From a phage: DNA of 64,000 nt. Each line of letters begins with the position of its first letter. Position 1 is the stretch's first letter. Made by a program: the position numbers and the translations under genes. The DNA lies in assembly GCA_029944565.1 (NCBI GenBank), contig GCA_029944565.1_4115.1. One strand, written 5' to 3'. Positions 1,999 through 60,177 of the stretch are shown here, piece after piece. The notes under the pieces were generated by a model, which saw only the letters and a program-made list of their open reading frames with translations, had not been told where the DNA came from and searched no databases.

Positions 1999-2528
1999 AA
2001 CTTCTCCTTTATAGCTGTCATATTTAGAAGAAATTCAGTAAGCAATTCCTCCGTAACATGCTCTGTATACCAGAATATCACAATATCTTTTGAAAGTCGT
2101 GTATTCATAAAAATATCTACTAACTCTTTGTAGAACTCTAGTGTTTCGAGATTTGTTAGAATTAACGAGTACTGAAAGAGTAATTCTTCCGTTAGATTAA
2201 ATTCTGGATAAAGTAAATCATTGAACTCATGTGATGCAGTTTGAACTTTAATTTCTTTGAAGTTATTGGTTATACAACCGGAATAAATATTTCTGTGCAA
2301 CTCTCTGTACAACGCAGCATAATCTATGAATTTTGCTTTAGGGTTAAAATCAAGAACACTTTCACCTTTATATGACAATCGGTGGAACGCCGAGAACATA
2401 GTCACTTCCCACGGTTGCTTAATATCTAGCTCAGTAATATCAATATTATTGGACAGAAGAACCGTAAAAATCTCACCAATCTTTAATAGTAACTTAGTAC
2501 GTGCCAGTGCTACCATCGGGTCAGTCAT
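1992..2528 (-). CDS. hypothetical protein, family A paralog
   Basis: motif EELLFQYSLIL. Confidence 0.6.
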   Translation of the reverse strand: MTDPMVALARTKLLLKIGEIFTVLLSNNIDITELDIKQPWEVTMFSAFHRLSYKGESVLDFNPKAKFIDYAALYRELHRNIYSGCITNNFKEIKVQTASHEFNDLLYPEFNLTEELLFQYSLILTNLETLEFYKELVDIFMNTRLSKDIVIFWYTEHVTEELLTEFLLNMTAIKEKLC

Positions 2529-2941
2529 TATACACCTTCATATTCATCAAGAAAATCTTCGATAATCATTTCAGCTTCATCCATATGCATAGCATCAACT
2601 TCAATGATGCGAACTTTAGATGCATCCCAAATCATATAACTAGGAACATTATCAGGCTCGTAGTCATTTTTGTACTGAACAGCATCATAACCTTGAGTAG
2701 TGCAATTCTCAATAAGTGAACGCCACTCATCATCACTGCCTAAATCTTCACACAGAAGCACGTTATCAACATCAACTTCTAAGGTATGCAAGTATACTGT
2801 ACATGCGTCTACTACGTTCAGTGGGCTTCTCAGCTTGCGTAACGCAGCTTCCAAAGCACTGTGTTTACCTCCCATATGAAGACCACCATACGGGATATAA
2901 AAGTTATCAATTTTTACAGTACTCGCATGATACAGTTTCAT
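2528..2941 (-). CDS. hypothetical protein
   Basis: 137-aa ORF; no family A module. Confidence 0.55.
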   Translation of the reverse strand: MKLYHASTVKIDNFYIPYGGLHMGGKHSALEAALRKLRSPLNVVDACTVYLHTLEVDVDNVLLCEDLGSDDEWRSLIENCTTQGYDAVQYKNDYEPDNVPSYMIWDASKVRIIEVDAMHMDEAEMIIEDFLDEYEGV

Positions 2942-2950
2942 ATTTCATTC

Positions 2951-3535
2951 CTATTTCAGTACTTTAGTCAATGCTTTCACAGCGGTTTCGAGTTGAGCAT
3001 AGTCGTTAATTGTAAGGTAATGAATACCATGTGCCTTCATTTCAGCATCTATTTTACTATATAAATCAAACATGTCAAGGATATGATTGTATGCATATGA
3101 AGTATTTGAAACACACAATTCTTGGAACAAACGTTCTTCCAAGTCATTCACAACTTCTCCATGAATATCAAGTACTACACCATCTTTGTAAGTGTAGTAC
3201 TCTTCACTCCACTCTTCAGAAAGTCGGAACAGTAACGGATTCCCGCCGAACACTTCCATGTCATAGGAATTTATCTCACTAAGTAGTGTTTCACCTGGTT
3301 CTGGTGTGAAGTCAAAATATGCGAGTGTTGTACCATCATAGTCCTTGAGTGATATACCAGTATGATTTAAGGTTACTTCACCATAATTATTATTCTTGAA
3401 CTTGATTTTGATATTAATCTCAATGTATTTTATTGTCTCATCATCACTGAAATTGTAATCAACTTTATACTTTTTCCAAAGAAGTTTGATATCTTTGAAG
3501 TACTTTAATTTACTTTCAATTTCTTTAAAGTCCAT
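2951..3535 (-). CDS. hypothetical protein, family A paralog
   Basis: motif EERLFQELCVS. Confidence 0.6.
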   Translation of the reverse strand: MDFKEIESKLKYFKDIKLLWKKYKVDYNFSDDETIKYIEINIKIKFKNNNYGEVTLNHTGISLKDYDGTTLAYFDFTPEPGETLLSEINSYDMEVFGGNPLLFRLSEEWSEEYYTYKDGVVLDIHGEVVNDLEERLFQELCVSNTSYAYNHILDMFDLYSKIDAEMKAHGIHYLTINDYAQLETAVKALTKVLK

Positions 3536-4127
3536 CTGGAACCACCATTTCTTGAATGTGCTTACATTTTATATTTGCCATATTGGTATGTAATATAATG
3601 CTGTGTTTACGCAATGATTTTACTTTGTAGCACTCATTGAGTACCGAAATAATTCCCCATAACTCTTCTACACTAATAGTGATAGGTTCACTTGTACTCA
3701 GTTGCATCAGTGCTGCTTGAACATCATCTTTGTTATTAATAGTGAACTGGATTCCTCTTTTGAGAATTTTAGTTTTTGGATTGTACTCAGCTAATACATC
3801 ACCTTCTGGATAACCCTCATGAAGTAATAATGTTGTTTCAAAATCACCGCAGTTGAAGTTAATTTCATCATAATCAGGTACACAAATGTTCCCTTCCCCG
3901 TACTCATTAGGTTCAGATTCTAGTGTTAAAATACGCTGAGTCTCATTGCTCAGGATGATAGAATCATTCCAGTACTGGGTAGTGAATGCTCTACGTTTCT
4001 TTTGAAAGCACATACTCGACATTGAACCATACTTCTTGTATATGGACTTCTTGAACTCAATAGCAGCAGGAGCCACCTTGATAACTTCACGAATTAAGTC
4101 AATAGCTTCTTGATAACTTTTTCTCAT
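3525..4127 (-). CDS. hypothetical protein (possibly divergent family A)
   Basis: 200-aa ORF; weak VEELWGIISV. Confidence 0.55.
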   Translation of the reverse strand: MRKSYQEAIDLIREVIKVAPAAIEFKKSIYKKYGSMSSMCFQKKRRAFTTQYWNDSIILSNETQRILTLESEPNEYGEGNICVPDYDEINFNCGDFETTLLLHEGYPEGDVLAEYNPKTKILKRGIQFTINNKDDVQAALMQLSTSEPITISVEELWGIISVLNECYKVKSLRKHSIILHTNMANIKCKHIQEMVVPDGL

Positions 4128-4675
4128 TTATCGTATCCATATAAAATATGATCTAGTGTACTTTGTACTTCTTCATGAAAGAATGAAGGGTAAACTTGTA
4201 TCAATTTATCTTTAAGTTCAAGGGAATGGCATAGTTCTAATGTTTTGTAACAATCCTCGTACTGTGCCAGATCATGTAATGTACTTAACTGAAAATGTTG
4301 TTCTTCGGAGTACAATAAATCATAAACCATATTATCGGATAAAAGATTAGATTTGATTGAAGGATCAAGTACTGTCTGGTGGTGACCAACCCAAAAGATA
4401 GCTTTTGAGTTAATGTTATTACAACCCCATCCTTTCCCCATCTTTTGGTGAATAGCAAATACACAGGAATCATACAAATTAATGCTCAGACGTTCTTCGT
4501 CTGCATGGATAGTTACACCATCAATAGATAGTGTATATTTGAAATCCATAGCCCCCTCACTTCGTGCACGAGAACTAAAGACCAGATATCGATGAATTAT
4601 GGTATTGATTTTATCTGTCCATCCATCAACACATTTGGATGCACATAATGTAAAAAGATCATGATTGTAGTTCAT
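4124..4675 (-). CDS. hypothetical protein, family A paralog
   Basis: motif EEQHFQLSTLH. Confidence 0.6.
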   Translation of the reverse strand: MNYNHDLFTLCASKCVDGWTDKINTIIHRYLVFSSRARSEGAMDFKYTLSIDGVTIHADEERLSINLYDSCVFAIHQKMGKGWGCNNINSKAIFWVGHHQTVLDPSIKSNLLSDNMVYDLLYSEEQHFQLSTLHDLAQYEDCYKTLELCHSLELKDKLIQVYPSFFHEEVQSTLDHILYGYDK

Positions 4676-4736
4676 AAAATTCTCCTTTAGGACAATGTAT
4701 CATACAAAAATACCAGAGTCAACCCCTGGTACGAAT

Positions 4737-5318
4737 TTAATCCATCATAAGTGGGATAATTGCCCATATCTTTTTCATAATCATATCTTCAGTAAAAACA
4801 AATGTTTTAGGAGCAGTATATGATATTGACACACCAAATGGAAGTTTGATTGCATCATCAATTATATTATGAATATCAAACCATGTTTTAACATAATCAT
4901 ACGGTGGAAGTTCATGAATTGTACTTAACTGAAAGTAATTCTCTTCACCAAAATCACTATATTCAATTTCACAAATTTTAGTGAATTGATGATTCCATTT
5001 AGATATAATACTATTTTTATTATTGTACATAGTAGTTCTATGCATAAAACCATTTTTGCTAGTATGATTTGATATTACGTTTTCTTCAATGTCAGTATCT
5101 ATTTTAAAATTCATATCAAAGTTGTAGTACGGACTTGACGATTCTTTGAATTTTAAATGTAAATTGCGATTGTTATTAATTTCAATTTCAATACAAAACA
5201 CATCTGAATCAAAACGATTAAACTTGTAATCGTTATCTTCCGGTAGATTCTGTATTTTTTTCATAATACTAAGCATAGGGTGTACTACACTTTTAATAAA
5301 ATCATTTGTTATTTTCAT
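4737..5318 (-). CDS. hypothetical protein, family A paralog
   Basis: motif EENYFQLSTIH. Confidence 0.6.
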   Translation of the reverse strand: MKITNDFIKSVVHPMLSIMKKIQNLPEDNDYKFNRFDSDVFCIEIEINNNRNLHLKFKESSSPYYNFDMNFKIDTDIEENVISNHTSKNGFMHRTTMYNNKNSIISKWNHQFTKICEIEYSDFGEENYFQLSTIHELPPYDYVKTWFDIHNIIDDAIKLPFGVSISYTAPKTFVFTEDMIMKKIWAIIPLMMD

Positions 5319-5811
5319 AGTATTCCTTTAGAACTTTATATGATTCAACAATACTATCTTGTGTATAATTTGAACTATATACAACAGCACTTGTTTTAGT
5401 TGACCATAGATATGACATAAAGGTTATAACACTACTACATGGACTTAATGTATTGTTTTGAAATTCAATTTCTTCAATGTTATCAGTACTGGTATAGATG
5501 AATTGGAAAGTACCCATTGATTTATTGGACAGCGATACTATAGTAGAATCCGTACCAGGACTATACATGAATGTCTCATTACTAATTGAACTATCATTAG
5601 TATATGATGGTTTGGGAATATAAATCAAACGCATGATATCGCGTTCAAGACCTGACTTATTACTTTCCACCAAAGAAATCATATCTATATTTGATATATG
5701 TTCAACACTGACATGGAACTTTTTGTCGAGAATCACATCTCCATGAGAATTTTTATATGAAGACAAAATCTCATACATCTCAACTAATTCGCGTGCATTT
5801 AATAAACTCAT
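5302..5811 (-). CDS. hypothetical protein, family A paralog
   Basis: motif EEIEFQNNTLS. Confidence 0.55.
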   Translation of the reverse strand: MSLLNARELVEMYEILSSYKNSHGDVILDKKFHVSVEHISNIDMISLVESNKSGLERDIMRLIYIPKPSYTNDSSISNETFMYSPGTDSTIVSLSNKSMGTFQFIYTSTDNIEEIEFQNNTLSPCSSVITFMSYLWSTKTSAVVYSSNYTQDSIVESYKVLKEYYENNK

Positions 5812-6236
5812 GTTTTGTCTCTTAATGAAAGAATATCCTTAGTATAAACTGAAACAGAAATATGATTATATTTCATCATTAATTTATACACATAAGAAGC
5901 TAGTACTAAATCGTAAATTAATTTAGTATTATACAGTACTTGGTATTGTAACGCAAGTGAATCAATATCATCTTTACTTTCAATATCCAGAAATGTACCG
6001 AAAAATGTAGTACCGTAGAGATGAAAAGTGGAATTAATGCAATCAATGCATTCATTGTCCAATAGAGTAGATGCTGATGCCCTCGGTGAATCCCAAATAG
6101 TCACTGCGTGTATGCCCTCAACGAACAAATCTATCCATATTTTGTGTCGTTGTCTTTTTTTTGTTTTATAATTTTCTGGATTTGAAAGTGTAGTTTCAAT
6201 TATATCCCATATGTACAAACAATCATCTCTTGTCAT
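5808..6236 (-). CDS. hypothetical protein (divergent family A?)
   Basis: 142-aa ORF, coupled to neighbours. Confidence 0.5.
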   Translation of the reverse strand: MTRDDCLYIWDIIETTLSNPENYKTKKRQRHKIWIDLFVEGIHAVTIWDSPRASASTLLDNECIDCINSTFHLYGTTFFGTFLDIESKDDIDSLALQYQVLYNTKLIYDLVLASYVYKLMMKYNHISVSVYTKDILSLRDKT

Positions 6237-6814
6237 TGTAGCACCTTATCCATTGCTGCATTTAATGCTTTTAAACGATCAACATTCAAAGTATTGAAGA
6301 TGTACGTTCCTAAAATGTGGAAATCGAATTGGTTCTTTTTGTATGTATGATAAATTAAACTACAAAAAACAACAGTACTAAGAACCTCTTCAGGTATAAC
6401 AGTGCTCATCTGGAACAGTTCTTCTTCAACTGTACTTGAATCTGGATTGATAGCTTTTAACACATACTCTTCATCACCGAATAGTACTTTAATATTATAT
6501 AAAACACCAATAGTACTAATATGGAATGGGTGATGTGAAAAACTTCCATCATCCTTAATTTGTATATCGGTTCTAATCTCACACTCTTCATTACTTTTAC
6601 TTTTATTTTTTACAATACAAATATTTCTGGCCCCAGAAATAGTAAGAATACCGTGGTCGTAATATTCATTTGACCAACATTTAGATGAAATTGATACATC
6701 ACGGATGAGATATTGTTTTTCAATTTCTTTCGCACTACCAACAATTGATAGCATTTTTTTACTGATATCATATAATAACTGATGGCGTTCTGTCATATAA
6801 CTATAAGCGTTCAT
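6233..6814 (-). CDS. hypothetical protein, family A paralog
   Basis: motif EEELFQMSTVI. Confidence 0.6.
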   Translation of the reverse strand: MNAYSYMTERHQLLYDISKKMLSIVGSAKEIEKQYLIRDVSISSKCWSNEYYDHGILTISGARNICIVKNKSKSNEECEIRTDIQIKDDGSFSHHPFHISTIGVLYNIKVLFGDEEYVLKAINPDSSTVEEELFQMSTVIPEEVLSTVVFCSLIYHTYKKNQFDFHILGTYIFNTLNVDRLKALNAAMDKVLQ

Positions 6815-7385
6815 ATTTTTCCTTAACAGATTCTATATTTTGAAGTAGTGTATTCAGAACATCAGTCTTGCAATTGATAAAATCATTGTACATAACTAGT
6901 TCACCACAATCAAGAATTTTTGCAGTATCGTAACAAAGCATTAAGTACTCGAATTCTTTGTAATTGTCCAACAAGGATTTCTGGAAAATGAATGCATCTC
7001 GAATATCTTCACTTTGGTCTAATTCTGGTGGAACATCCAACCCAATAAATCCATCATCTTCACTGAAATTAGATTCTACAATTTTATTCATTTTTTCATG
7101 TAATGCATTCGCAAATACCATATTAGAAGAAATAGAACCAATACGTTCACGATTTCTGGATGTGCGAATGTACATAGTAATCGTATCCCATGAACTTTTA
7201 ATTTTTTTAGAAAATTCATAAGTTTTATATACATCCAACTGAACTGATCCAAAACGATGTTTGGATTTGTTTTCAATTTTCAGTCGATAATCATCAAATT
7301 CAACAATTTCTGTAATGTCATGAATCTCTGAAAGTTCTGCAATGTCATGCATGAGTCTCAAAATTTTAGTTCTGATATGGTTCAT
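6801..7385 (-). CDS. hypothetical protein, family A paralog
   Basis: motif DAFIFQKSLLD. Confidence 0.55.
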   Translation of the reverse strand: MNHIRTKILRLMHDIAELSEIHDITEIVEFDDYRLKIENKSKHRFGSVQLDVYKTYEFSKKIKSSWDTITMYIRTSRNRERIGSISSNMVFANALHEKMNKIVESNFSEDDGFIGLDVPPELDQSEDIRDAFIFQKSLLDNYKEFEYLMLCYDTAKILDCGELVMYNDFINCKTDVLNTLLQNIESVKEKYERL

Positions 7386-7960
7386 TGTGCATCCTCGAAT
7401 TTAACAGGTACATGTTCATTAATGAAATTCTTAAGAGCCTGTACTAAATCCTCTAATTCTTTTGTACTGTATTTTAAAATAGTTTTAAAGTGAATCAAAT
7501 CTTTTCTTTCCATGATCTTTGGAATTTTATATGCTAACTCTAAACAGCGTACAGTACTGGCATCATACAAAAGGTTTGCGTTGAACATTAGAACATTGTA
7601 TTCATCAGATGAAATTTTATAATTATATGTATCAATCACTTCATGTGTGTATAAATTCTTATACACAATTTTATTCTCACTGAAGTTTGAGCAAACACAC
7701 AGATGATCGTTGTAAAATGAAGAACGATAATCTTGTTTACGTTGTACATCTGCTATGATTTGTAATACTGTATATTTTTCTTCAGAATCCAACTCAATGT
7801 TAGCATAACTGCTCGCAGTTTCAGATACAAGGATATTGATGTTATATTTCTCATTAACTTTAATGTACTGGCGTGAGCCAGTATCAGGAATGAACTTAAA
7901 ACAATGCTTCAGAAGTAATGTGACTTCTTTAATTAATTCAGTACTCATAGATTCCTCCAA
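7382..7960 (-). CDS. hypothetical protein (divergent family A?)
   Basis: 192-aa ORF; SD ggagg before ATG. Confidence 0.55.
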   Translation of the reverse strand: MEESMSTELIKEVTLLLKHCFKFIPDTGSRQYIKVNEKYNINILVSETASSYANIELDSEEKYTVLQIIADVQRKQDYRSSFYNDHLCVCSNFSENKIVYKNLYTHEVIDTYNYKISSDEYNVLMFNANLLYDASTVRCLELAYKIPKIMERKDLIHFKTILKYSTKELEDLVQALKNFINEHVPVKFEDAQ

Positions 7961-7975
7961 CTCTAGTTAAAATCA

Positions 7976-8003
7976 AGTATAACACACCTGAATGCTCTTG
8001 TAA
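7976..8003 (-). promoter_or_regulatory. sigma70-like promoter (TTACAA-16-TATACT)
   Basis: -35/-10 hexamers read on minus strand upstream of 7382..7960. Confidence 0.4.
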
Positions 8004-8008
8004 AGCCA

Positions 8009-8036
8009 TAAACACAAAAAGACCCATACGGGTCTT
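8009..8036 (-). terminator. rho-independent terminator
   Basis: hairpin agacccatacgggtct followed by U-run on minus strand, right after stop of 8036..8602. Confidence 0.6.
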
Positions 8037-8602
8037 TATTTTGGTAAAACACTGTCAATGTACGCTAGAACCTCATCTCGAAGGTACGTTCCATCTATAG
8101 TTAGGTAATAGTTCATGGGAATATCACTCCCAACCTTCTCATAAATTTTCATACATGATATCACATCTTCATCACAAATGGTACTCAATTGAAAAAGAAC
8201 TTCATCGGTTAACGGTACGATATCATGTTTAGATAGGGGATTTGTATTTTCATTCAACACAATATTAATCAAGTTAGGAGTATTCTTTGACGAAATATAA
8301 CGATGCTTACTACGAATTACCATTCTCGATAGTGAAATACTGGAACTCCATCTTGGATCAACATCTTCATATGATAACGATATTAACATCTCGTGAAAAT
8401 CTTGAAATTTCATTGACGCATAATATGTTTTATCCTCACCGTACATACCAAATGATTTAAATTCAATATCCCCCACTTTGTATGTATCGACATCATTATT
8501 TGAGAACTTTATTAAACTATTAATTAGTCTAATTAGAATATCATCTTTATCCATTCTTAAATAACTCCAAGTGCATGTCGTATAAATCTCTGAAGTCTTC
8601 AT
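8036..8602 (-). CDS. hypothetical protein, family A paralog
   Basis: motif DEVLFQLSTIC; start may be internal Met (~8554). Confidence 0.6.
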   Translation of the reverse strand: MKTSEIYTTCTWSYLRMDKDDILIRLINSLIKFSNNDVDTYKVGDIEFKSFGMYGEDKTYYASMKFQDFHEMLISLSYEDVDPRWSSSISLSRMVIRSKHRYISSKNTPNLINIVLNENTNPLSKHDIVPLTDEVLFQLSTICDEDVISCMKIYEKVGSDIPMNYYLTIDGTYLRDEVLAYIDSVLPK

Positions 8603-9110
8603 AGAAATCTTTTTCTACCAGAATATCCTTTAAACTAGGAAACTCTTCCATAATTTCTTCTATATCCGATTCTATGAAAAACCCTGATGGTTTATCGTAG
8701 TTTTGTAACAGATAACTGAAAGTAATAATGTAAAGAAGTTCATTAGGATTGTGAATTAAACTTAGCTGGAACATAGCTGATTCTAAATCGGATTCAGTAC
8801 TAAGATCAACCCAACGTGAATTTCTATAATCAATTCGTACTTGACTTGTATTTGGATTCCATGTGAAGCAATGTGTACCAATATGACCTATACAACCAAC
8901 CCTTGTACTGTCTCCGGTATCAACACTGATATCAACAAATAGTTCAACACAGATATCGGATGATGTTACACGACCTTTTTTCAGAAATAAATCATTATCC
9001 TTACGAAATTGTTTGGATGAAAGAGTGTCAATGATGCACATCAATGTTTTTGCAAATGCAACACAATGACGAAATTCAAGCCTATGAAATTGGTAATCAT
9101 TGATATTCAT
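8547..9110 (-). CDS. hypothetical protein, family A paralog
   Basis: motif ESAMFQLSLIH. Confidence 0.6.
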   Translation of the reverse strand: MNINDYQFHRLEFRHCVAFAKTLMCIIDTLSSKQFRKDNDLFLKKGRVTSSDICVELFVDISVDTGDSTRVGCIGHIGTHCFTWNPNTSQVRIDYRNSRWVDLSTESDLESAMFQLSLIHNPNELLYIITFSYLLQNYDKPSGFFIESDIEEIMEEFPSLKDILVEKDFYEDFRDLYDMHLELFKNG

Positions 9111-9649
9111 AATTCAACCCCCAATATTTTATCAGCAATTGATATAACCTTATCATTGAATACATTACCAATCTCAATCCTTATATACATAGCAGGTGGA
9201 ATCTTTCCTTGTAGTGAATAATATGTTTGTATACCTAAGTACTCATTATCTGATAATGAAAATTTGATTCTCTCCATATCAATGTCTGTTACTGGTAAAT
9301 CAATCATTTCATAATGGTAGTCAACGTTTTCAGTGTATATTTTATCGAAGTAATTTGAATAATCACTACTAATATAGATGCTATCATCACGAATAATCAC
9401 TTTATAATCAGAAGGTTCAAATTTATCTTTAGAAGAAAAGAATGCATCATCTATCTTCTCTTCTCTTATACCGAATAACATTTTACCATCATATTTTACA
9501 TCAAGAATACTACCTAGTATATTAATGGTACAATGCTCATCAATATTATGACGTAAAGAACGAGTCTTGTATTTTGGGTTAATGAAAATTTTCATTAATT
9601 TTATACAAATGTCAGTAATGCATTTTACATTCTCATTTTCTATGTACAT
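9107..9649 (-). CDS. hypothetical protein (divergent family A?)
   Basis: 180-aa ORF, ATGA-coupled. Confidence 0.5.
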   Translation of the reverse strand: MYIENENVKCITDICIKLMKIFINPKYKTRSLRHNIDEHCTINILGSILDVKYDGKMLFGIREEKIDDAFFSSKDKFEPSDYKVIIRDDSIYISSDYSNYFDKIYTENVDYHYEMIDLPVTDIDMERIKFSLSDNEYLGIQTYYSLQGKIPPAMYIRIEIGNVFNDKVISIADKILGVEL

Positions 9650-10136
9650 TAAAAGCCCTCTTTAATTCTTTTACATTTTTAATGAATACTTTCATTGCAG
9701 AAATCTCAAAAGATAATGTATTAAATTTGCAGTACTTTTTAAAGTACGACATTATGAATAACATTTTGAGTTCTTTTTCTGTATAAATTAAACTGTTTTG
9801 AAAGTAACTTTCTTCGGAAATGTCCGTAAGAAAAGAATAAAATGTATTTTGCTTGTGCACAATTTTAATACTATCAGACCAAGATTTGTATGAAACGTAA
9901 TCAGTACGTGCAAAATCATATAGTGAATTAGATGTATCTGTGTATGTTTCCGAGAACACAATCTTATATATCTTATCTTGAATTCGAGAACATATGTACC
10001 TATGGTCATCTGTCTCACTGATTGCAATGTATCTATGGAGTAAATCTTTATGAGCATTGATGAACTCAAACACTTCTAAACACTCCTTAGCGAACTTCAT
10101 AGTTTCTCTGTACTTTCGGTTCATTAGTCTCTCCAA
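9633..10136 (-). CDS. hypothetical protein, family A paralog
   Basis: motif EESYFQNSLIY. Confidence 0.6.
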   Translation of the reverse strand: MERLMNRKYRETMKFAKECLEVFEFINAHKDLLHRYIAISETDDHRYICSRIQDKIYKIVFSETYTDTSNSLYDFARTDYVSYKSWSDSIKIVHKQNTFYSFLTDISEESYFQNSLIYTEKELKMLFIMSYFKKYCKFNTLSFEISAMKVFIKNVKELKRAFNVHRK

Positions 10137-10537
10137 ACTTTACCAGGGAAGTGTTTTTCGTAGTACTCATCATCACTTAACATATAATCAGGAGTTTCTA
10201 CTTCTATGGTTTTGAAGATTGTTTCTGGAATGTGTGTGACTTTATTGGGTTGTACTTTATGTTCGCGTAAAACCTTCTGTATCGCTCCTAGACGTTGTAA
10301 ATCGATACATGTAGGAAGAACTAAGCTGTACTGGAATAACTCATCAGGGGTCATTATAGACACATCCTTAGCTTGTTTGATTTTATTGTTGGCATCAATG
10401 AATATATCAAATCCATGTACAGCATTATAGCTTACATAGGTTGTTTTATTTTTGTCAATAGGAGCACTTAAACGATATCCATATACCCCGTGTTGATCAA
10501 CAAGACAGCGTTGCATAATTTTAATCATTTCTAACAT
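10124..10537 (-). CDS. hypothetical protein, family A paralog
   Basis: motif PDELFQYSLVL. Confidence 0.6.
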   Translation of the reverse strand: MLEMIKIMQRCLVDQHGVYGYRLSAPIDKNKTTYVSYNAVHGFDIFIDANNKIKQAKDVSIMTPDELFQYSLVLPTCIDLQRLGAIQKVLREHKVQPNKVTHIPETIFKTIEVETPDYMLSDDEYYEKHFPGKVWRD

Positions 10538-52393: not shown

Positions 52394-52633
52394 TTACATT
52401 CCAACCATTGCAGCACGGATCGCCGTAGTGCTATACTTGAATCCGTCCGGTGTTGTAGTAGTACCGTTGGCTTTTAATCTGCGGTACATACATTGGGCCG
52501 CAATATCTTTAGTTTTACATTGTGCGATGCAACTTTGAGCAAGCCGATATAATGACTCACCGTTATTAATCCACAATGAAACATTCCAATGAGTTTTGTT
52601 TTTGTGCCCGTTGTAAGTTTTAGTAGTAGCCAT
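52394..52633 (-). CDS. hypothetical protein (paralog of 53077..53316)
   Basis: shared GHKNKTxWNVSLWINN and TPDGFKYSTTAIRAAMVGM. Confidence 0.6.
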   Translation of the reverse strand: MATTKTYNGHKNKTHWNVSLWINNGESLYRLAQSCIAQCKTKDIAAQCMYRRLKANGTTTTPDGFKYSTTAIRAAMVGM

Positions 52634-53076: not shown

Positions 53077-53316
53077 TTACATTCCAACCATTGCAGCACG
53101 GATCGCCGTAGTACTGTACTTGAATCCGTCCGGCGTTTTATCTTGTCCAGTCTGTTCTAAAAATAGCATCATATGACGGGCCGCATCATTGCGATTAGTG
53201 TTAGCGGCAATAAAGTCCTGGGCCAACCGGTATAATGATTCATCGTTATTAATCCAAAGGCTTACATTCCATTGAGTTTTGTTTTTGTGACCTAAGAACA
53301 TTTTTGATTTAGCCAT
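53077..53316 (-). CDS. hypothetical protein (paralog of 52394..52633)
   Basis: identical C-terminal 19 aa. Confidence 0.6.
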   Translation of the reverse strand: MAKSKMFLGHKNKTQWNVSLWINNDESLYRLAQDFIAANTNRNDAARHMMLFLEQTGQDKTPDGFKYSTTAIRAAMVGM

Positions 53317-53797: not shown

Positions 53798-53856
53798 GCG
53801 GGAAGTGTTCCCGCTCTCGATGTAAAACATTATACGCTTTTAAACATAGTTTGCAA
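53798..53856 (-). promoter_or_regulatory. early promoter (TTGCAA-16-TATAAT) plus leader hairpin
   Basis: hairpin agcggga-agtgt-tcccgct. Confidence 0.65.
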
Positions 53857-53886
53857 GTACTTTCTACATGTACTTTTAAAATAGTT

Positions 53887-53975
53887 TTCTTTCTATATAG
53901 GAGTACTATTATTCAGTACTGCAACCATCCAGGGGAACTATCTTTCTATATAGGAGTACTATGATTCAGTACTGA
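53887..53975. repeat. two ~33-bp direct repeats (tctttctatataggagtactatNattcagtactg)
   Basis: copies at ~53889-53920 and ~53942-53975. Confidence 0.6.
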
Positions 53976-54136
53976 ATCAATCCACCAAATCATCCCGATA
54001 CCCCGTAAAACGGCCTCAGACGCATTCTAACGCATTAATACACCTAAGCTATACATTTGCACCATTCCAATCATTCCAGGGCTTTACGGGCCGTTTAAAC
54101 GCGTTAAATTATTTTCAATTATTTTGTTTTTAGCTA

Positions 54137-54164
54137 TTGACTCAGTACTGAAAAAGCGTATAAT
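54137..54164 (+). promoter_or_regulatory. plus-strand promoter (TTGACT-16-TATAAT)
   Basis: hexamers on plus strand; followed by conserved-core transcript. Confidence 0.55.
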
Positions 54165-54351
54165 TACTATATAGACGCGAGAAAGCGGATACCCCAGGGG
54201 GTGGGAAGATCCGTCCAAAATTCAAGATATAAAAAAAGGATAGACTCCCGCACCCTAGCAGGTTAACGCACTTTCTCAGTACTGAATTATAGTACCATAG
54301 TCCGGCCCAGGATGGCAAGCAAATTAATTAAAACTTTTTTCATCCAGGGTA

Positions 54352-54380
54352 TTGCTTTATTTTTCCAGTACTGCTATAAT
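54352..54380 (+). promoter_or_regulatory. plus-strand promoter (TTGCTT-17-TATAAT)
   Basis: followed by GTC-gagaaa-GAC hairpin and CCCACCGGGTGCATAGTTGTATCTA core. Confidence 0.5.
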
Positions 54381-54477
54381 ATTTTTATCAAGTCGAGAAA
54401 GACTCTAGCCCACCGGGTGCATAGTTGTATCTAAAATTCAGTACTAGATTATTTTTTAAAATTATTCATCCAAGCGG

Positions 54478-54506
54478 TTGACATACCAGGCGAAAACGGG
54501 GATAAT
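54478..54506 (+). promoter_or_regulatory. plus-strand promoter (TTGACA-17-GATAAT)
   Basis: hexamers on plus strand, no ORF downstream. Confidence 0.5.
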
Positions 54507-54599
54507 GATTCCAGATTCAGAAAAATCTAACTCCAGATACTGCGGGGAAACCATCCCCACGCGGTAGGGGAACTATTGGAAAAAATAAAATAAAAATTT

Positions 54600-54770
54600 T
54601 GATTTAGCCGTCTATACATCCAGACGTGTAACCATCTAGCCGTTTAGCCGTCCAAACGTCTAGCAGTACAGCCATCTAGAAATCTAGCCATCCAGCCGCC
54701 TAGAGGGATAGCCATCTTTACTTCCAGCCATCTGGAGGTCTAGACATCTCTACGTCTAAATTTAACCTAG
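54600..54770. repeat. iteron-like cluster of short GC-rich repeats (CCATCTAG / CGTCTA / TCTAGC)
   Basis: at least 10 degenerate units with CTAG cores in 170 bp, GC-rich against AT-rich background. Confidence 0.6.
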
Positions 54771-54914
54771 GGTTACTACACCCAAAATCCGTCAGTACTA
54801 TACCATAGATCTATCTTTTGAAAGGGAGTATTCAGTACTGCCATCATAGCCCTCACTATGTTACCCTAGGAGGATGAAGACTATCATGTAGTACTGAATA
54901 CTGTTAGGGGGAAT

Positions 54915-54934
54915 CCACCAGCACAAGCTGGTGG
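54915..54934. other. back-to-back Chi octamers CCACCAGC-acaa-GCTGGTGG
   Basis: perfect 8-bp inverted pair, Chi in both orientations. Confidence 0.55.
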
Positions 54935-55570
54935 CATAATGCTTTAGATTAAAATCAGTACTGACACCATTCTGTTAATATCAGTACTGTTATTACGATT
55001 TTCATATGAGGTTCAAAAAGATGTACCACCACAGGAGGAACTATCTTTTCTGTACTGTCTCACGACAGGAGGTAGAGTAAATGAATTGTTCGCAGCAACT
55101 CATCACCCTATGTAGAACATTATACAGTACTGAATCATAATGTCAATAACTTTCTTTCACCATTCAGTACTGATATTCTTGAGAACTACCCGACTACAAA
55201 CATCATTATATCCCACAAATCATAAACGTCCCAACGTAAATTTCAACTTTCGAAGATCCAACTTTTATTTCATAGGTACTCCAAAATTTTTAGGATCGAG
55301 ATTTAGAATGGAGTACTAACCAACTTTTTGCTGGAGCCTCAAGGGGTAATGGAATTTTACCCCGAAGGGTAAAAGGGTAATTGTAATTAAGGTGAAAGTA
55401 ATAATTCAGTACTAATCATTGCGTGATTACTTTTGATTACATTTGATGTAATTTGCAAAATGGAAAAGGAGCTTGGAAACTACAAAGTACGGCAGACTTC
55501 CTCTGCCTACTTAGTGGCATATCAGTACTGCTACGTTCTTGATTAAACGTGAACATTCCTGTACTCTAGT

Positions 55571-55610
55571 ACTCACTACTGTTCACTACTGTTCACTACT
55601 GATCACTACA
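55571..55610. repeat. four tandem 10-bp repeats (CTCACTACT/GTTCACTACT/GTTCACTACT/GATCACTACA)
   Basis: helical-pitch spacing, followed by ATGATTAC-type repeats at 55619-55670. Confidence 0.65.
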
Positions 55611-55721
55611 GTGATTATAAATGATTACTTAAATGTTTATATATGATTACTTATGACTACCTATGATTACGGGGTTTAGCCTGGGGAGAATCCTAGTGAT
55701 CGCATTTGTCCAGGCTGAATT

Positions 55722-55756
55722 TTAACATATGCAACATATGTTAAAGCCTGTATAAT
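55722..55756 (+). promoter_or_regulatory. perfect palindrome TTAACATATG-caa-CATATGTTAA next to -10 TATAAT
   Basis: 10-bp inverted arms at 55722-55744; TATAAT at 55751-55756 preceded by TG. Confidence 0.45.
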
Positions 55757-55786
55757 GCTTCCACTACGGAGCTTCCCCTAGCTATA

Positions 55787-55978
55787 TTACTTCCTATATA
55801 TAAGCATTAAGATATAGTAGTACTGATTATACTGTACATTCTCTTTAATATTATAAGGGTCTATAGCAATCTCGGTACATCTGTTAAATGCATATCTATT
55901 AAATGCCAGTGGAATTATAGATCTAATCCATACTTGTTCATTTTCTTTTAGTTTACTTATATAGAAGTTTTTATACAT
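55787..55978 (-). CDS. small hypothetical protein, family C paralog
   Basis: ends LMLIYRK; tandem array. Confidence 0.45.
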   Translation of the reverse strand: MYKNFYISKLKENEQVWIRSIIPLAFNRYAFNRCTEIAIDPYNIKENVQYNQYYYILMLIYRK

Positions 55979-55993
55979 AGTATTCTCTATTAA

Positions 55994-56176
55994 TTAATAT
56001 GGTAGTACTAGTGTTAGTACTGAGCACAATTGTTCTTTGTAGTTCTTAGGGTATATAGAATCTTTTATGCACTCATTGAAGTGCCATAGGTATAATCTTG
56101 GGTCGCATTCTTTATATATTCTTACGGGGACGAATGTTAGTTTTCGTATATAGAATTCTTTATGTTCTTTATTCAT
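55994..56176 (-). CDS. small hypothetical protein, family C paralog
   Basis: MNKEHKEFY start. Confidence 0.45.
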   Translation of the reverse strand: MNKEHKEFYIRKLTFVPVRIYKECDPRLYLWHFNECIKDSIYPKNYKEQLCSVLTLVLPY

Positions 56177-56177
56177 A

Positions 56178-56366
56178 TTAGTACCTGAATATAAGTAGGA
56201 TTATGTTATAGTACTGGTTAGTACTGCAATGATTCTCTATACATCGATTAACAGTTATGGAATAGCTATATCTGGCGTAAGCATTATCCAGCGGGATTTT
56301 ACATTGAGCACTTAGAGAAAGTACAGTAGGTAGTGTATTCAAATAGAAGTCTTTGTAATTATTCAT
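56178..56366 (-). CDS. small hypothetical protein, family C paralog
   Basis: ends ILLIFRY. Confidence 0.45.
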   Translation of the reverse strand: MNNYKDFYLNTLPTVLSLSAQCKIPLDNAYARYSYSITVNRCIENHCSTNQYYNIILLIFRY

Positions 56367-56568
56367 ACAGGAATAGTATACCTATGATACCTGAGTACAG
56401 GTTAGTACTGTTACCATCTTCGTTTGCGTTTAAAGTCATTTGAATACAATTATTGTAGCATACTCTGCCGAAAAATGTATTAGTACTTAAAGGTGGAGTA
56501 GTCCTTAGAAACATTTGTTCTGAGGGGCTTATGTATTTGGAGTAGAATTCTTTATGTTCTTTATTCAT
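56359..56568 (-). CDS. small hypothetical protein, family C paralog
   Basis: MNKEHKEFY start. Confidence 0.45.
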   Translation of the reverse strand: MNKEHKEFYSKYISPSEQMFLRTTPPLSTNTFFGRVCYNNCIQMTLNANEDGNSTNLYSGIIGILFLYE

Positions 56569-56573
56569 ATTAG

Positions 56574-56759
56574 TTAGTGTCTGTATATAAGTAATAGTAA
56601 GAATACGTACTGCACATCTTCATCTTTAGTATTGAGTACTGTACGTATTGCGTCATTAAACAAGAATATAGTACTTGGGTCATGAGAATTTAAAGGGGTT
56701 CTGGGTACGGCATGTTTGTAGTTCCCTTTAACAAATTGTGTGTAGTATTCTCTATGCAT
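56574..56759 (-). CDS. small hypothetical protein, family C paralog
   Basis: MHREYY start, ends LLLIYRH. Confidence 0.45.
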   Translation of the reverse strand: MHREYYTQFVKGNYKHAVPRTPLNSHDPSTIFLFNDAIRTVLNTKDEDVQYVFLLLLIYRH

Positions 56760-56760
56760 A

Positions 56761-56946
56761 TTAGTACCTATATATTAGGGCGAGAATGTAGTACAATTCA
56801 TATGGAATGTAATTTGGGGTGATCGCACACTGTGTATGGTAAATGAATTGTTCGGTATTTTTCTTATCCTTGATATCTATTGGGATTTGTGGTATAAGCA
56901 TTTGGGAGTTTAGATCGAGATGGCTTAAGTAGAATTCTTTATGCAT
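56761..56946 (-). CDS. small hypothetical protein, family C paralog
   Basis: MHKEFY start, ends LALIYRY. Confidence 0.45.
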   Translation of the reverse strand: MHKEFYLSHLDLNSQMLIPQIPIDIKDKKNTEQFIYHTQCAITPNYIPYELYYILALIYRY

Positions 56947-56955
56947 ATTGTTCTC

Positions 56956-57144
56956 TTAGAATACGAAAGCTAGGTACAGGGTATGATACAGTACTTGATT
57001 ATAGTTGTAATAATTTATCACGCATTTAGTGCACGTAATGAAGTAGTCTTTTTTGTAGTTTATTTCTATACCGCTAGGTTCATCTTCTAACAGATTACCT
57101 TGAAGGTGCGGAGGTAAATCTTTTATGTAGTATTCTTTATGCAT
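56956..57144 (-). CDS. small hypothetical protein, family C paralog
   Basis: start at internal MHKEYYIKDL of track ORF. Confidence 0.45.
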   Translation of the reverse strand: MHKEYYIKDLPPHLQGNLLEDEPSGIEINYKKDYFITCTKCVINYYNYNQVLYHTLYLAFVF

Positions 57145-57145
57145 G

Positions 57146-57328
57146 TTAGTACCTGAATATAAGTAGGATAGTGTTATATAGCTGGTCATAACTACTACTA
57201 TTTTCTATACTTCGTTCTATGCAGTTATTGAATCCCAGTACTGCCAAATCGTTATCCATAGGGACTTTATATCTGGCGTAGTGTTCAAAAATGCTGGGGA
57301 GAAATTGTGTGTAGTATTCTTTGTGCAT
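57146..57328 (-). CDS. small hypothetical protein, family C paralog
   Basis: MHKEYY start, ends ILLIFRY. Confidence 0.45.
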   Translation of the reverse strand: MHKEYYTQFLPSIFEHYARYKVPMDNDLAVLGFNNCIERSIENSSSYDQLYNTILLIFRY

Positions 57329-57329
57329 A

Positions 57330-57521
57330 TTAGTACCTATATATTAGTAAAAGGATGTGATACAGTACTCGATTATAGTCGTCAATATATATCGAGGATT
57401 TAGTGCACTGAATGAAGTAGTCTTTTTCGTAGTTTTTTTCTATACCCAATGCAACGTTTGGTACAAGGTGTTGGAGATACATTGGGAGTTTCTCTATGTA
57501 GTATTCTTTGTGGTTATTCAT
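57330..57521 (-). CDS. small hypothetical protein, family C paralog
   Basis: MNNHKEYY start, ends LLLIYRY. Confidence 0.45.
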   Translation of the reverse strand: MNNHKEYYIEKLPMYLQHLVPNVALGIEKNYEKDYFIQCTKSSIYIDDYNRVLYHILLLIYRY

Positions 57522-57529
57522 ATTATGTG

Positions 57530-57709
57530 TTATTTCGTGAAAACAAGGGTTAGTACTGCATAGTACAAGTCATACGTATCTTTAGGGTTAATAGCACCTT
57601 TAATACATTCTTTTATTAATTCATTATAGATAATTTTAGTACTGAAGGTATTGGATGTTACTATATCGGAATTAAGGTACGAGAGGTAGAATTCTTTATG
57701 TTTGTGCAT
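57530..57709 (-). CDS. small hypothetical protein, family C paralog (59 aa)
   Basis: MHKHKEFY start; below ORF-track cutoff. Confidence 0.4.
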   Translation of the reverse strand: MHKHKEFYLSYLNSDIVTSNTFSTKIIYNELIKECIKGAINPKDTYDLYYAVLTLVFTK

Positions 57710-57710
57710 A

Positions 57711-57893
57711 TTAGTACCTGAATGTTAGCATTACTACGTAGTACAGCATATATGGATTATCATCGTATATGAGCGTGTACTTAGTACATTGTTGGAACAT
57801 TATTTTTGCGTGATCTTTTATTCCTATTGGTTCTTTTGGTATATGGTGCTGGAGATGCATTGGGAGATGTTCCCTGTAGTATTCTTTATACAT
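57711..57893 (-). CDS. small hypothetical protein, family C paralog
   Basis: start at internal MYKEYYREHL, ends VMLTFRY. Confidence 0.45.
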   Translation of the reverse strand: MYKEYYREHLPMHLQHHIPKEPIGIKDHAKIMFQQCTKYTLIYDDNPYMLYYVVMLTFRY

Positions 57894-58557
57894 AGTTTGT
57901 AATATACGTAATGAGGTGATGCATTTTCTTATTAGTACTGATAAGTTCCTGTACATGTTTTGTCAGATTGTACGCGTTTTTATAGAGTACTGGATTATCG
58001 ATTACAGTACTGTACATGAATAGTTCTTCTTCCTGTAGTTCTTTGTGTTCTAGTTCTTTGAGGAATTGTAGTACTGTATCAGTTTCTTCTGTACGTTGTG
58101 CTTGCCAGAAGTGCATATTCTCGTGTACTTTTTCTGCATCAGTAGAGTATATGCCACCCATTTGGAATTGTGCTGTATTGACATCGTGGGAGGTGTTACA
58201 ATTCCCGAAGAAGTATGTATTCCCGAAGTATAGCATTAAAGTGCACGGGGTATTATCCAACTGCATATTGATGATGAAGGATGCGTTCTTTAGTACCTTT
58301 GTGCTCGTATTAGTACTCAATACTTTTAAATCAGTATTATAGATATTCATATAATGAACAGCTATATTATTTTTCTTCATGTACAATTCAAGGTTCTTTG
58401 ATACGTTAACTCCATTTGTACTGGATTTTTCCTTTTTATTTCGTTTCTTTAGTACATTCGGGTGATACGTATATGCAGATGTAACTGATTCTGCCTGAAT
58501 ACTATTGAGGTACTTAAAGTGCTTAAGGTATTGTTTGCTGTGTGCATTAAGTTTCAT
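57886..58557 (-). CDS. hypothetical protein with family A module, embedded in family C array
   Basis: 223 aa; C-terminal LQEEELFMYSTVIDNPVLY. Confidence 0.6.
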   Translation of the reverse strand: MKLNAHSKQYLKHFKYLNSIQAESVTSAYTYHPNVLKKRNKKEKSSTNGVNVSKNLELYMKKNNIAVHYMNIYNTDLKVLSTNTSTKVLKNASFIINMQLDNTPCTLMLYFGNTYFFGNCNTSHDVNTAQFQMGGIYSTDAEKVHENMHFWQAQRTEETDTVLQFLKELEHKELQEEELFMYSTVIDNPVLYKNAYNLTKHVQELISTNKKMHHLITYITNYV

Positions 58558-58567
58558 TTGGTTTCCT

Positions 58568-58747
58568 TTATATAGATGCCAGGGCGAGGATTTCCCTGTA
58601 GGGATTATCTTGTGTTAGTACAGCATAAATGCAGTTATTGAGATTAATATTTTTAGTACTTTTTGTTCCTAGTTTGTAGTACTTCACGAAGGTGTCGTAC
58701 ATGAAACGGTCTTTTATGGTTATACGTTCTCTATAGAATTGTTGCAT
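58568..58747 (-). CDS. small hypothetical protein, family C-like (59 aa)
   Basis: MQQFYRERI start; below ORF-track cutoff. Confidence 0.35.
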   Translation of the reverse strand: MQQFYRERITIKDRFMYDTFVKYYKLGTKSTKNINLNNCIYAVLTQDNPYREILALASI

Positions 58748-58755
58748 AGTATTCC

Positions 58756-58938
58756 TTATATAGAGATTAGTTTCATTACTTCTCTGTATGTGTACTTTTC
58801 GTTTTGTGCATCTCTTGTGACGACATATAGGAAGGTGTGTTTATCTTTTTTGTTCCCGCAATTGTAGAAAATATTGAACTTATTGAAGTTGAATCTTTCG
58901 GCGTGTTGTAGTTTAGTTAAATAGAATTCTATGTTCAT
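58756..58938 (-). CDS. small hypothetical protein, family C-like
   Basis: 60-aa ORF ending MKLISI. Confidence 0.4.
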   Translation of the reverse strand: MNIEFYLTKLQHAERFNFNKFNIFYNCGNKKDKHTFLYVVTRDAQNEKYTYREVMKLISI

Positions 58939-58946
58939 TTTCTTCC

Positions 58947-59132
58947 TTACATTTCAATAAGTTTCAGTACTGCTCGGTACGTGTACTTAGTTGTCAGTGC
59001 TTCTTTAATAGAAATACAGAAGTAATGTTGTTTGTCTCTTATACTGCCGCGTTTGTAGTACCACACATGGGAGTTGTGACTGTACTTGTCTCTGTCGGAT
59101 AGTTGTTGGTAGTAGTAGCTTATATGATTCAT
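58947..59132 (-). CDS. small hypothetical protein, family C-like
   Basis: 61-aa ORF ending LKLIEM. Confidence 0.4.
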   Translation of the reverse strand: MNHISYYYQQLSDRDKYSHNSHVWYYKRGSIRDKQHYFCISIKEALTTKYTYRAVLKLIEM

Positions 59133-59341
59133 TATAATGTAATTAGCCTTACTATATTAAAGTACTCGGTCCCTGGTGTACCTTGTAGTATATTACGCAC
59201 GACATTTTTTTGGTGCTGGATGATTGCTGAAGGTGCGGTTCTTTTTAGTTTTTTTAAAGTACTGAATTCTTGTTTAAGTATGAACTGTACATCTTTAGGG
59301 AGAATATCTATGTAGTACTGATGAATGTTTGTAGTTTTCAT
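59132..59341 (-). CDS. small hypothetical protein, family C paralog
   Basis: QYYIDILP start region, ends VRLITL. Confidence 0.45.
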   Translation of the reverse strand: MKTTNIHQYYIDILPKDVQFILKQEFSTLKKLKRTAPSAIIQHQKNVVRNILQGTPGTEYFNIVRLITL

Positions 59342-59351
59342 ATAGCACCTT

Positions 59352-59546
59352 TTAGAACTTAAAGATGAGGTTCAGGATAGAGCGGTACTTAGTTTCAGGG
59401 AACTGATGTTCTATTGCATAACGTGTCGCCATCCTGAAATCGTAATTGTAATATAGATTATCCTTTCTCATAGGTGGTGCTAAAGAGAATGATAGCTGGT
59501 CTTGCTTGTGTAGTTTACTACCATAGAAATCTTTATGATTATTCAT
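59352..59546 (-). CDS. small hypothetical protein, family C paralog
   Basis: MNNHKDFY start, ends LNLIFKF. Confidence 0.45.
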   Translation of the reverse strand: MNNHKDFYGSKLHKQDQLSFSLAPPMRKDNLYYNYDFRMATRYAIEHQFPETKYRSILNLIFKF

Positions 59547-59748
59547 AGAAGTAGATTAGTCCTATTAAACCTGAGTACATAATATTTTTGTTATTGCATT
59601 CGATTGCTTCTAGAGTACTACGTATACAATTATTAAAGCAATCTCTACCGAAGTGAGTATTGGTACTTACAGGTGATACACTCCTTAGAAACAATTGTTC
59701 TTCGTTGCTAAGGTATTTGGTGTAGAATTCTTTATGTTCAGTATTCAT
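59539..59748 (-). CDS. small hypothetical protein, family C paralog
   Basis: MNTEHKEFY start. Confidence 0.45.
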   Translation of the reverse strand: MNTEHKEFYTKYLSNEEQLFLRSVSPVSTNTHFGRDCFNNCIRSTLEAIECNNKNIMYSGLIGLIYFYE

Positions 59749-59749
59749 A

Positions 59750-59953
59750 TTAGTACTCGATTAAAAGGGCAAGGATATAATAGTATTGCATACTTTCTGC
59801 CCCTTGTAAAGCATTTCTTATGATATTACTCCTGTACGAGTTCAGGAGTTTAGGACAACGTTTGTAGTGTATAAAAGTATTTTGTGTATACAGTAGGCTT
59901 TCTCGTAGACCTTTTGTTGGTAGTGCATCGATGTAGTACTGTTCAATGTTCAT
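59750..59953 (-). CDS. small hypothetical protein, family C paralog
   Basis: MNIEQYYIDALP start, ends LALLIEY. Confidence 0.45.
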   Translation of the reverse strand: MNIEQYYIDALPTKGLRESLLYTQNTFIHYKRCPKLLNSYRSNIIRNALQGAESMQYYYILALLIEY

Positions 59954-60177
59954 ATAGATAGCAGTACTAAGATTTTTGATAATTGTTTATTGCTATCCCC
60001 GCAGATGTTGCTGTGTAAAATACTCACAATGAGGGTATCAATTGCATTGTTCATCATAAGGGTGCATCCTGGACTATTATAATTTTTTAGCTCAATTAGC
60101 CACGAACTATCCGAGAGAAATTCCCCGTACTCTAGTTCATTTAGAGTATTGAGGTAGTACTTAAGAGTATTTGTCAT
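59950..60177 (-). CDS. small hypothetical protein (first gene of family C operon)
   Basis: 75-aa ORF with SD aaggag. Confidence 0.45.
   Translation of the reverse strand: MTNTLKYYLNTLNELEYGEFLSDSSWLIELKNYNSPGCTLMMNNAIDTLIVSILHSNICGDSNKQLSKILVLLSI

Follow-up and report, generated by a model that had tools for sequence, protein, structure and literature searches.

A tandem array of predicted metboxes, a putative super-operator for the host methionine repressor MetJ, in the terminal repeat of a jumbo coliphage

A gene-free hub close to the genome end of a jumbo coliphage carries a tandem array of 8-bp units that we read as a putative 'super-operator' for MetJ, the methionine repressor of its host, with approximately 19 tandem metboxes placed inside the direct terminal repeat; judging from the DNA sequence, we give this reading a probability of about 0.65. 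Host MetJ with its corepressor S-adenosylmethionine is the most economical ligand, and we are fairly confident in predicting that it binds the array. We are much less confident in any one selected consequence of that binding than in MetJ as the ligand. The window, that is, the whole 64,000-nucleotide stretch analysed here, belongs to an Asteriusvirus (121Q/PBECO4-like) with a 350-kb genome, and its hub is 90–98% identical to those of the Asteriusvirus coliphages 121Q, PBECO4, G17 and phAPEC6.

The array is organized as 20 degenerate octamers that follow one another without gaps from 54603 to 54762, with zero indels over 160 bp and the consensus TCTAGCCR in register from 54603. Its lag-8 autocorrelation is 0.51 versus 0.25 (z = 7.6 against shuffles), the highest lag-8 signal within the 64-kb window, and its autocorrelation peaks are confined to lags of 8, 16, 24, 32 and 40 (0.51–0.62, over a background of approximately 0.2). 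A repeat search returned 12 overlapping copies with a start-to-start spacing of exactly 8. An earlier note on this DNA, made from the letters and a list of open reading frames, had described a GC-rich, CTAG-dense cluster in AT-rich DNA within a 1.9-kb non-coding hub, and this description is borne out: GC content is 0.468 in the array stretch versus 0.345 in the window; CTAG occurs seven times in 171 bp, against approximately 0.6 expected from local composition and a window mean of 1.28 per kb; and the gene-free gap spans 53831–55786 (1,956 bp), with no CDS in the 121Q and G17 annotations. The five strings quoted there also lie where they had been placed (54630, 54670, 54605, 54656 and 54736). 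The 'degenerate 8–11-bp units' into which they had been grouped give way, however, to a strict 8-bp period. All six frames through the stretch contain stop codons, and a coding repeat was rejected on these stops and on the period of 8.

The metbox is the 8-bp site of the Escherichia coli methionine repressor MetJ, with the consensus AGACGTCT; one MetJ homodimer binds each metbox, and functional sites need at least two adjacent boxes (PMC3228920). Several MetJ dimers occupy adjacent metboxes, with S-adenosylmethionine (SAM) as corepressor, and solved MetJ structures exist. Shifted by three bases, the array units read AGCCGTCT, AGACGTGT, AAACGTCT, AGCCATCT and AGACATCT. We scored them with the symmetrised half-metbox bit matrix and the rule of Augustus & Spicer, under which a box has at least 3.145 bits and a whole site at least 12.58 bits (PMC3228920). 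In the register from 54606 there are 19 contiguous boxes, 16 of which pass, for a total of approximately 116 bits, whereas the seven remaining registers score between −118 and −482 (Table 1). Applied strictly, the rule divides the array into runs of 7, 4 and 4 boxes. Outside the array, the 64-kb window contains one 2-box site, and shuffled sequences reached at most 3 boxes. The same rule recovered the positive controls, the metJ/metB and metF operators of E. coli K-12, at 4 boxes each (31 and 25 bits), and the 6–8 bits of individual array boxes are similar to the scores of natural ones. At least two boxes follow one another at a period of exactly 8, with no spacers or indels, and the six of seven array CTAGs that share one phase are box junctions, as in tandem metboxes.

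Table 1 Positions of the array and neighbouring features in the window.
Feature	Position	Strand	Basis or remark
19 contiguous 8-bp metbox-like units	54606–54757		16/19 boxes ≥ 3.145 bits, total ~116 bits
Array runs passing the published rule	54606–54661 (7 boxes), 54670–54701 (4), 54710–54717 (1), 54726–54757 (4)		
Weak units keeping phase in the array	starts 54662, 54702, 54718		three units
Sigma-70-type promoter P_out, TTGACA-17-GATAAT	54478–54506	+	11/12 matches
Conserved leader between P_out and array: GGGG/CCCC hairpin (54542–54562), then GCGGTAGGGGAACTATTGG (54561–54579)	54542–54579	+	alignment
A/T-rich tract directly before the first box	54580–54605		
GC-rich hairpin CCACCAGC-ACAA-GCTGGTGG	54915–54934		terminator annotated at the homologous G17 site
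Consensus sigma-70 promoter, inward from the genome end, TTGACA-16-TATAAT	55119–55146	−	12/12 matches
Direct terminal repeat, one copy (~20.3 kb), array near its right edge	35250–55511		record starts, boundary mapping, GC step at 35 kb
Short repeats around the physical terminus: TGATTAC ×5, TCACTACTGT ×3.7	55424–55670	+	candidate terminase recognition

Beyond the scores, the base preferences of the phage boxes follow those of natural operators. The base-frequency matrix of the phage boxes correlates with the natural matrix at r = 0.90–0.98 in 14 arrays and at 0.97 when these are pooled, whereas shifted registers give r ≤ 0.25. Secondary preferences are shared as well, with A over G at position 1, G over A or T at position 2, A over C at position 3 and C over T at position 4. 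The observed r of 0.965 was attained by 8 of 200,000 trials in which the assignment of bases to frequencies was randomised within each column and the best of the eight registers was kept. Two departures from the natural pattern were seen. Phage boxes are polar, in that 26% of half-sites have C at position 3 (AGCC, on one strand) versus 10% in natural boxes, and T at position 5 is commoner in them than in natural operators.

Comparison with related records places the array within a terminal repeat. The hub matches approximately 610–1,080 bp from base 1 of the records deposited with terminal repeats, and in vB_Ec-M-J the match falls within a feature labelled 'Direct Terminal Repeats 1-21525'. 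Three independent records, vB_Ec-M-J, fEgEco12 and BF17, share their first base (AGTAGGCAGAGG), which is the reverse complement of window position 55511, and the other repeat boundary maps to approximately 35,250, where GC content steps from 0.33 to 0.41. As the boundaries map to these two positions, the window holds one copy of the terminal repeat, with the right edge of the array (54757) lying 754 bp from the physical end, between 55511 and 55512. Other repeats flank the cut itself, namely five copies of TGATTAC within 250 bp and the TCACTACTGT units, and these terminus-straddling repeats resemble the DRD repeats across the end of the T5 terminal repeat. The packaging site suggested earlier for the cluster is thus right as to neighbourhood, since the array is near the packaging end, but the repeats that straddle the terminus are better terminase candidates than the array.

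Just beyond the terminal repeat begins a minus-strand series of approximately 16 tandem paralogous ORFs of 59–81 amino acids (MHKEYY...LLIYRY; 55787–60177). Inward of the hub, after a 139-amino-acid ORF, the first genes encode two paralogous 79-amino-acid DUF7249 proteins (53077–53316 and 52394–52633, minus strand). A domain search of the 10 neighbouring ORFs found DUF7249 and DUF1033 only, with no domain of the DNA-binding, Rep or Par kind. Downstream of the array there is neither a met gene nor any ORF, and searches of the window for Rfam families and for tRNA or tmRNA genes returned no match.

Every Asteriusvirus examined has the array, and homologous arrays of 12–28 boxes occupy the same place in three jumbo-phage genera, their lengths differing by multiples of 8 bp. 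Those of Mimasvirus (CBB and XbC2) and Eneladusvirus (BF and the Erwinia pEa phages) lie at the same distance from base 1; CBB, BF, pEa12 and XbC2 have a homologous first base (TATCYKTTCCTGAAGTC), and the array-to-boundary distance is approximately 680–850 bp in CBB, BF, the Erwinia phages and XbC2, whose ends were identified by PhageTerm as long T5-type terminal repeats. GAP32 and Yersinia fHe-Yen9-04 also carry the array, in records that begin elsewhere than the homologous terminus. In BLAST, the match to other genera, at a nucleotide identity of approximately 70–75% for the array, begins at the GCGGTAGGGGAACTATTGG element of the leader (query position 120), which is recognisable in CBB. The CBB and BF arrays contain many identical units in the same order and align without gaps over most units; the proteins of the first inward gene are only 41% identical between these two phages. 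Across six Asteriusvirus genomes, arrays of 12–24 boxes differ in length by −16, −48 and +40 bp, all multiples of 8, and blocks of 16–40 bp are duplicated in the arrays of close relatives.

Arrays of this type extend beyond jumbo phages. A BLAST search with the array of Aeromonas phage AhSzq-1 matched 96 phage records, reaching T5-like Demerecviridae of Vibrio, Aeromonas and Providencia, with pVp-1 and JSF10/12 among the matches. Pontus has 15 boxes, AhSzq-1 has 28 (all of them passing), KIT04 has 12 and PR1 has 9, with a mean of 9.9 bits per box; the T7-like Ermolevavirus phages PGT2 and phiKT have 9. In PR1, Pontus, AhSzq-1 and PGT2, which are independent lineages of the jumbo phages, the arrays are close to terminal-repeat boundaries. 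The PR1 array (9620–9691) lies approximately 770 bp from the boundary of an annotated repeat, 1–10461, and occurs a second time approximately 770 bp from the right end; its boxes are found in both orientations. In PGT2, copies at 38–109 and again at 151–222 bp from the right end place the array near both ends of the record. The first 800 bp of Pontus (1–800) contain, in order, approximately eight T5-type DRD repeats (GGATTTGCACC), the 15-box array and three DnaA boxes (TTATCCACA), so that this hub combines predicted sites for two host proteins. T5 is absent among the AhSzq-1 matches, and the part of its terminal-repeat boundary that we examined contains no octamer array; the injection-stop region of T5 type can therefore do without this element.

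Larger sequence collections give a more mixed picture. A pattern scan of IMG/VR, in which approximately 20 of 120 matches were true metbox arrays and the others unrelated 4- and 8-bp repeats, showed arrays at both ends of PGT2 and PR1. Uncultured phage contigs of 35–54 kb in this collection end in perfect octamer repeats such as AGCCTTCC, AGCCATCC and AGCCCTCC, in some cases on either side; this means either that phages with terminal repeats commonly have octamer arrays at their ends, or that assemblies break at such repeats. In GTDB, octamer repeats with the units AGCCGTCC, AGCCATTC (GAATGGCT) and GAACGGCT occur, among the matches listed, in Gemmatimonadales, Streptomyces, Burkholderiales, Bacteroidota and others. 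Many of the bacteria among these listed matches are without MetJ, and the octamers are mostly perfect and recent-looking. The GTDB scan is uninformative on host restriction and serves as a caution: octamer arrays can arise for other reasons, because similar units are found in MetJ-less bacteria, and octamers of other sequence on the ends of many uncultured phage contigs.

The hosts of the phages that carry arrays are, with one exception, drawn from bacteria in which MetJ is expected. MetJ is limited to Enterobacterales, Pasteurellales, Vibrionales, Aeromonadales and Alteromonadales, and the listed hosts fall in three of these five orders; the exception is XbC2, which carries the array and was reported on Xanthomonas, a genus without MetJ. 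The closest relatives of the window phage all infect E. coli or Salmonella, and Enterobacterales have MetJ. No phage-encoded MetJ homologue was found by tblastn in 50,697 phage records, in which the three matches are bacterial sequences filed as phage. For the broadest form of our proposal we see even odds: that at least three unrelated lineages of virulent phages (Rak2-like jumbo myoviruses, T5-like siphoviruses and a T7-like podovirus genus) carry giant MetJ operators in their terminal repeats, by which a host repressor would become a structural or regulatory part of the chromosome end, either as a SAM-gated block to terminus-proximal transcription, entry or packaging or as a MetJ decoy.

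In a rival reading, a phage-encoded protein would coat the octamers for genome-end recognition, packaging or end protection, with the likeness to metboxes being convergent; a small ribbon-helix-helix protein, the terminase small subunit or a virion protein would be candidates. Such a binder would fit the constant position of the array near the terminal-repeat boundary, from the window and its jumbo relatives to PR1 and PGT2, as well as the octamers of other sequence that end many IMG/VR contigs. It would also fit the AGCC polarity on one strand, which is unexpected for a symmetric dimer, and the report of XbC2 on a MetJ-less host. However, the motif is shared by Demerecviridae, Autographiviridae and unassigned jumbo genera, among which we found no candidate binder in common, and no DNA-binding domain was detected in the 10 neighbouring ORFs. 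Repeats of another kind flank the terminus and are better positioned for a terminase, and agreement this close with the MetJ matrix has a chance probability of approximately 4 in 100,000. We regard a phage-encoded binder as unlikely. It is because of the box polarity, the octamer repeats of MetJ-less bacteria and the XbC2 exception that we reserve some probability for this explanation, or for a role at the level of RNA, alongside MetJ as the predicted ligand.

The array is bracketed by convergent promoters and overlaps neither, as P_out points into it and the promoter at 55146–55119 points inward. From an inferred start near 54513, P_out is directed through the array to the genome end, with the first box approximately 92 nt downstream of that start. 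Its hexamers are invariant in six Asteriusvirus genomes, in which the spacer has diverged, and CBB has an equivalent outward promoter approximately 90 bp from its array. The GC-rich hairpin beyond the array may end the P_out transcript. A terminator-like hairpin (54989–54956) likewise follows the inward promoter before the array is reached. Unlike natural met operators, the array overlaps no promoter −35 or −10 element.

This arrangement invites an explanation in which the array works as RNA. The P_out transcript, non-coding and approximately 430 nt long, would use its 19 repeats to bind or sequester an RNA-binding factor or a small RNA, or would form an R-loop in the A/T tract and so prime replication, as in a T4-type origin. 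The conserved leader and the P_out hexamers, invariant despite the diverged spacer, are consistent with such a role, as are the equivalent promoter in CBB, the lack of an ORF downstream of the array, the position of the A/T tract between leader and array, a cumulative GC skew minimum near 56 kb and the polarity of the boxes, which is compatible with a strand-specific function. Against it, Rfam gave no match, and the predicted fold of the transcript (z = −3.3 overall) has nothing distinctive in its array part. PR1 has boxes in both orientations, and the palindromic preferences of the units suit a double-stranded DNA site of a symmetric dimer. The flip in GC skew coincides with the small-gene family of unusual composition at 55787–60177, where the skew changes sign although the genes stay on the minus strand; the minimum may reflect the odd composition of this family and not an origin. 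An RNA-level role appears to us distinctly unlikely.

Further elements accompany the promoters of this region. The palindrome CAGTACTG occurs 54 times in the window against 0.8 expected (for example, at 54143, 54366, 55125, 38538, 39032, 47558 and 51559), often filling the spacer just upstream of the −10 element in strong sigma-70-like promoters (TTGACA...CAGTACTG-TATAAT), with some copies within coding regions. It contains AGTACT and may serve as a promoter element or be recognised by a regulator or modification enzyme of the phage. Two further strong outward promoters (54137–54215 and 54340–54425) are each followed by a similar segment, GAGAAAG...CTAGCCCACCGGGTGC, which is kept in CBB (approximately 950–1,020) and has no Rfam match; these segments are possible small non-coding RNAs. 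Copies of the motif GGGGAACTAT(T/C) lie at 53340, 53931, 54567 and 55038, in 5′ leaders and beside the array, and one of them, with a promoter on one side and a start codon on the other, makes the hairpin GTGGGGAACTATTCCCCAC.

For this iteron-like cluster, the earlier note had also suggested a replication origin or a partition-like protein array, which we assessed as a classical iteron origin and a plasmid-like centromere. Dense direct repeats in a gene-free hub beside an A/T-rich tract do recall such elements, and contiguous arrays of 7–8-bp units are bound by the ribbon-helix-helix centromere binders omega (pSM19035) and ParG (TP228). However, the period is 8 bp and not the helically phased 17–22 bp of iterons, there are no DnaA boxes in the hub, and of the features of an origin only the A/T tract is present. 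The nearby initiator or ParB gene that the note proposed to look for is not found in the domain search of the 10 neighbouring ORFs, which contain no Rep, ParA, ParB or ribbon-helix-helix gene. Moreover, the element sits in the terminal repeat of virulent phages, and T5 origins map elsewhere. Both forms of this proposal are very improbable. What very probably survives of it, on our prediction, is the broader idea of a protein-binding array in a non-coding control hub; the motif matches the operator of host MetJ, which it had not considered. A functionless minisatellite generated by neutral slippage, which would suit the variable copy number among close relatives, the duplicated 16–40-bp blocks and the octamer repeats that are common in bacterial genomes (GTDB, among the matches listed), is hardly credible given units that have diversified while keeping perfect phase, a box order kept between genera that share just 41% identity in the adjacent protein, and base preferences that track the MetJ matrix.

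If MetJ is the ligand, MetJ–SAM dimers would bind after DNA entry, one per box and cooperatively, coating approximately 150 bp, and they should hold the near-consensus run more tightly than they hold natural 4-box operators. The resulting nucleoprotein block would have the conserved outward promoter on one side and the genome end on the other, and for this reason could be a roadblock or insulator, dependent on SAM, to transcription near the terminus. As the phage replicates, the approximately 19 boxes per genome unit would come to exceed the operator boxes of the host, and the array could serve as a sink, pulling MetJ away from the met and metK operators of the host and raising the supply of methionine and SAM. 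Metboxes are present at metK in 119 of 122 enterobacterial species, and relatives of the window phage encode several SAM-dependent methyltransferases.

Which of these consequences has been selected can be graded only tentatively. A MetJ sink is a plausible candidate, although we would not bet on it; a roadblock or insulator is somewhat doubtful, and an accessory role in packaging or entry is improbable. A dose-type function such as a sink fits the array because it has 12–28 boxes versus 4, because its copy number varies by whole boxes and because each virion genome would contain two copies, given its place in the terminal repeat. A local function fits because a conserved promoter lies 92 bp upstream and because the array keeps its place near the repeat boundary in three lineages. 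The two are compatible and not exclusive.

In the literature on metboxes or MetJ in phages, we found no report of such arrays; they go unmentioned both in the paper on the CBB genome and in the analysis of T5-like repeat regions by Davison, in which PR1 is included. The operator type is known; its length, context and likely use are probably unprecedented. If MetJ coats the arrays, these phages exploit a metabolic sensor of the host through DNA sites alone, in a way that is invisible to gene-centred annotation. This would be a new class of phage–host interaction, a cis-acting repressor sink or sensor instead of a protein effector, and would link phage development to the SAM and methionine state of the host; SAM also fuels restriction-modification, other defences and phage methyltransferases. 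The array would further be a candidate for one repeat module in the hubs that edge long terminal repeats, including the presumed T5 injection-stop region. It would also offer a natural, very long cooperative MetJ filament for biophysics and a marker for termini in jumbo-phage assemblies.

The closest known counterparts are the metF and metJ/metB operators of E. coli and Salmonella, which share with the array the immediate 8-bp tandem, the AGACGTCT consensus and the CTAG junctions. The phage arrays differ from the 4-box control operators in having 12–28 boxes and in being polar and AGCC-rich, and from met operators in general in that the array lies in the terminal repeat of a virulent phage with no cognate regulated gene evident. 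In architecture, the nearest likeness is the T5 injection-stop region (Repeat Region 3, at the inner end of the left terminal repeat), which, like the hub of the window, is a gene-free collection of repeats edging a long terminal repeat of early genes. The T5 hub has host-protein sites in the form of paired DnaA boxes; the window hub is without them, and Pontus has DnaA boxes beside its array. The Pontus array, between DRD repeats and DnaA boxes, occupies the slot of the T5 DRC/DRE repeats, where the injection-stop signal is thought to lie; T5 differs in having no octamer array in this region.

Arrays of similar geometry are known from plasmids: the omega heptads of pSM19035 and the ParG tetramer boxes of TP228 parH are contiguous 7–8-bp repeats on which one dimer of the MetJ/Arc superfamily binds each unit and a protein filament forms. 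These plasmid arrays differ in that they adjoin the genes for their binder and for a partition ATPase, none of which is present among the 10 neighbouring ORFs of the window. In T7, the SRL and SRR arrays of short repeats flank the terminal repeat of a non-permuted genome. They resemble the array described here in adjoining a terminal repeat, and differ in consisting of irregularly spaced heptamers of unrelated sequence. Finally, CtrA sites in alphaproteobacterial phages (PMC9437464) and DnaA boxes in T5 are, like the predicted metboxes, phage-borne sites for a regulator that is encoded by the host and not by the phage; those sites are single or few and lie at phage promoters, whereas the array is a long tandem at the genome end.
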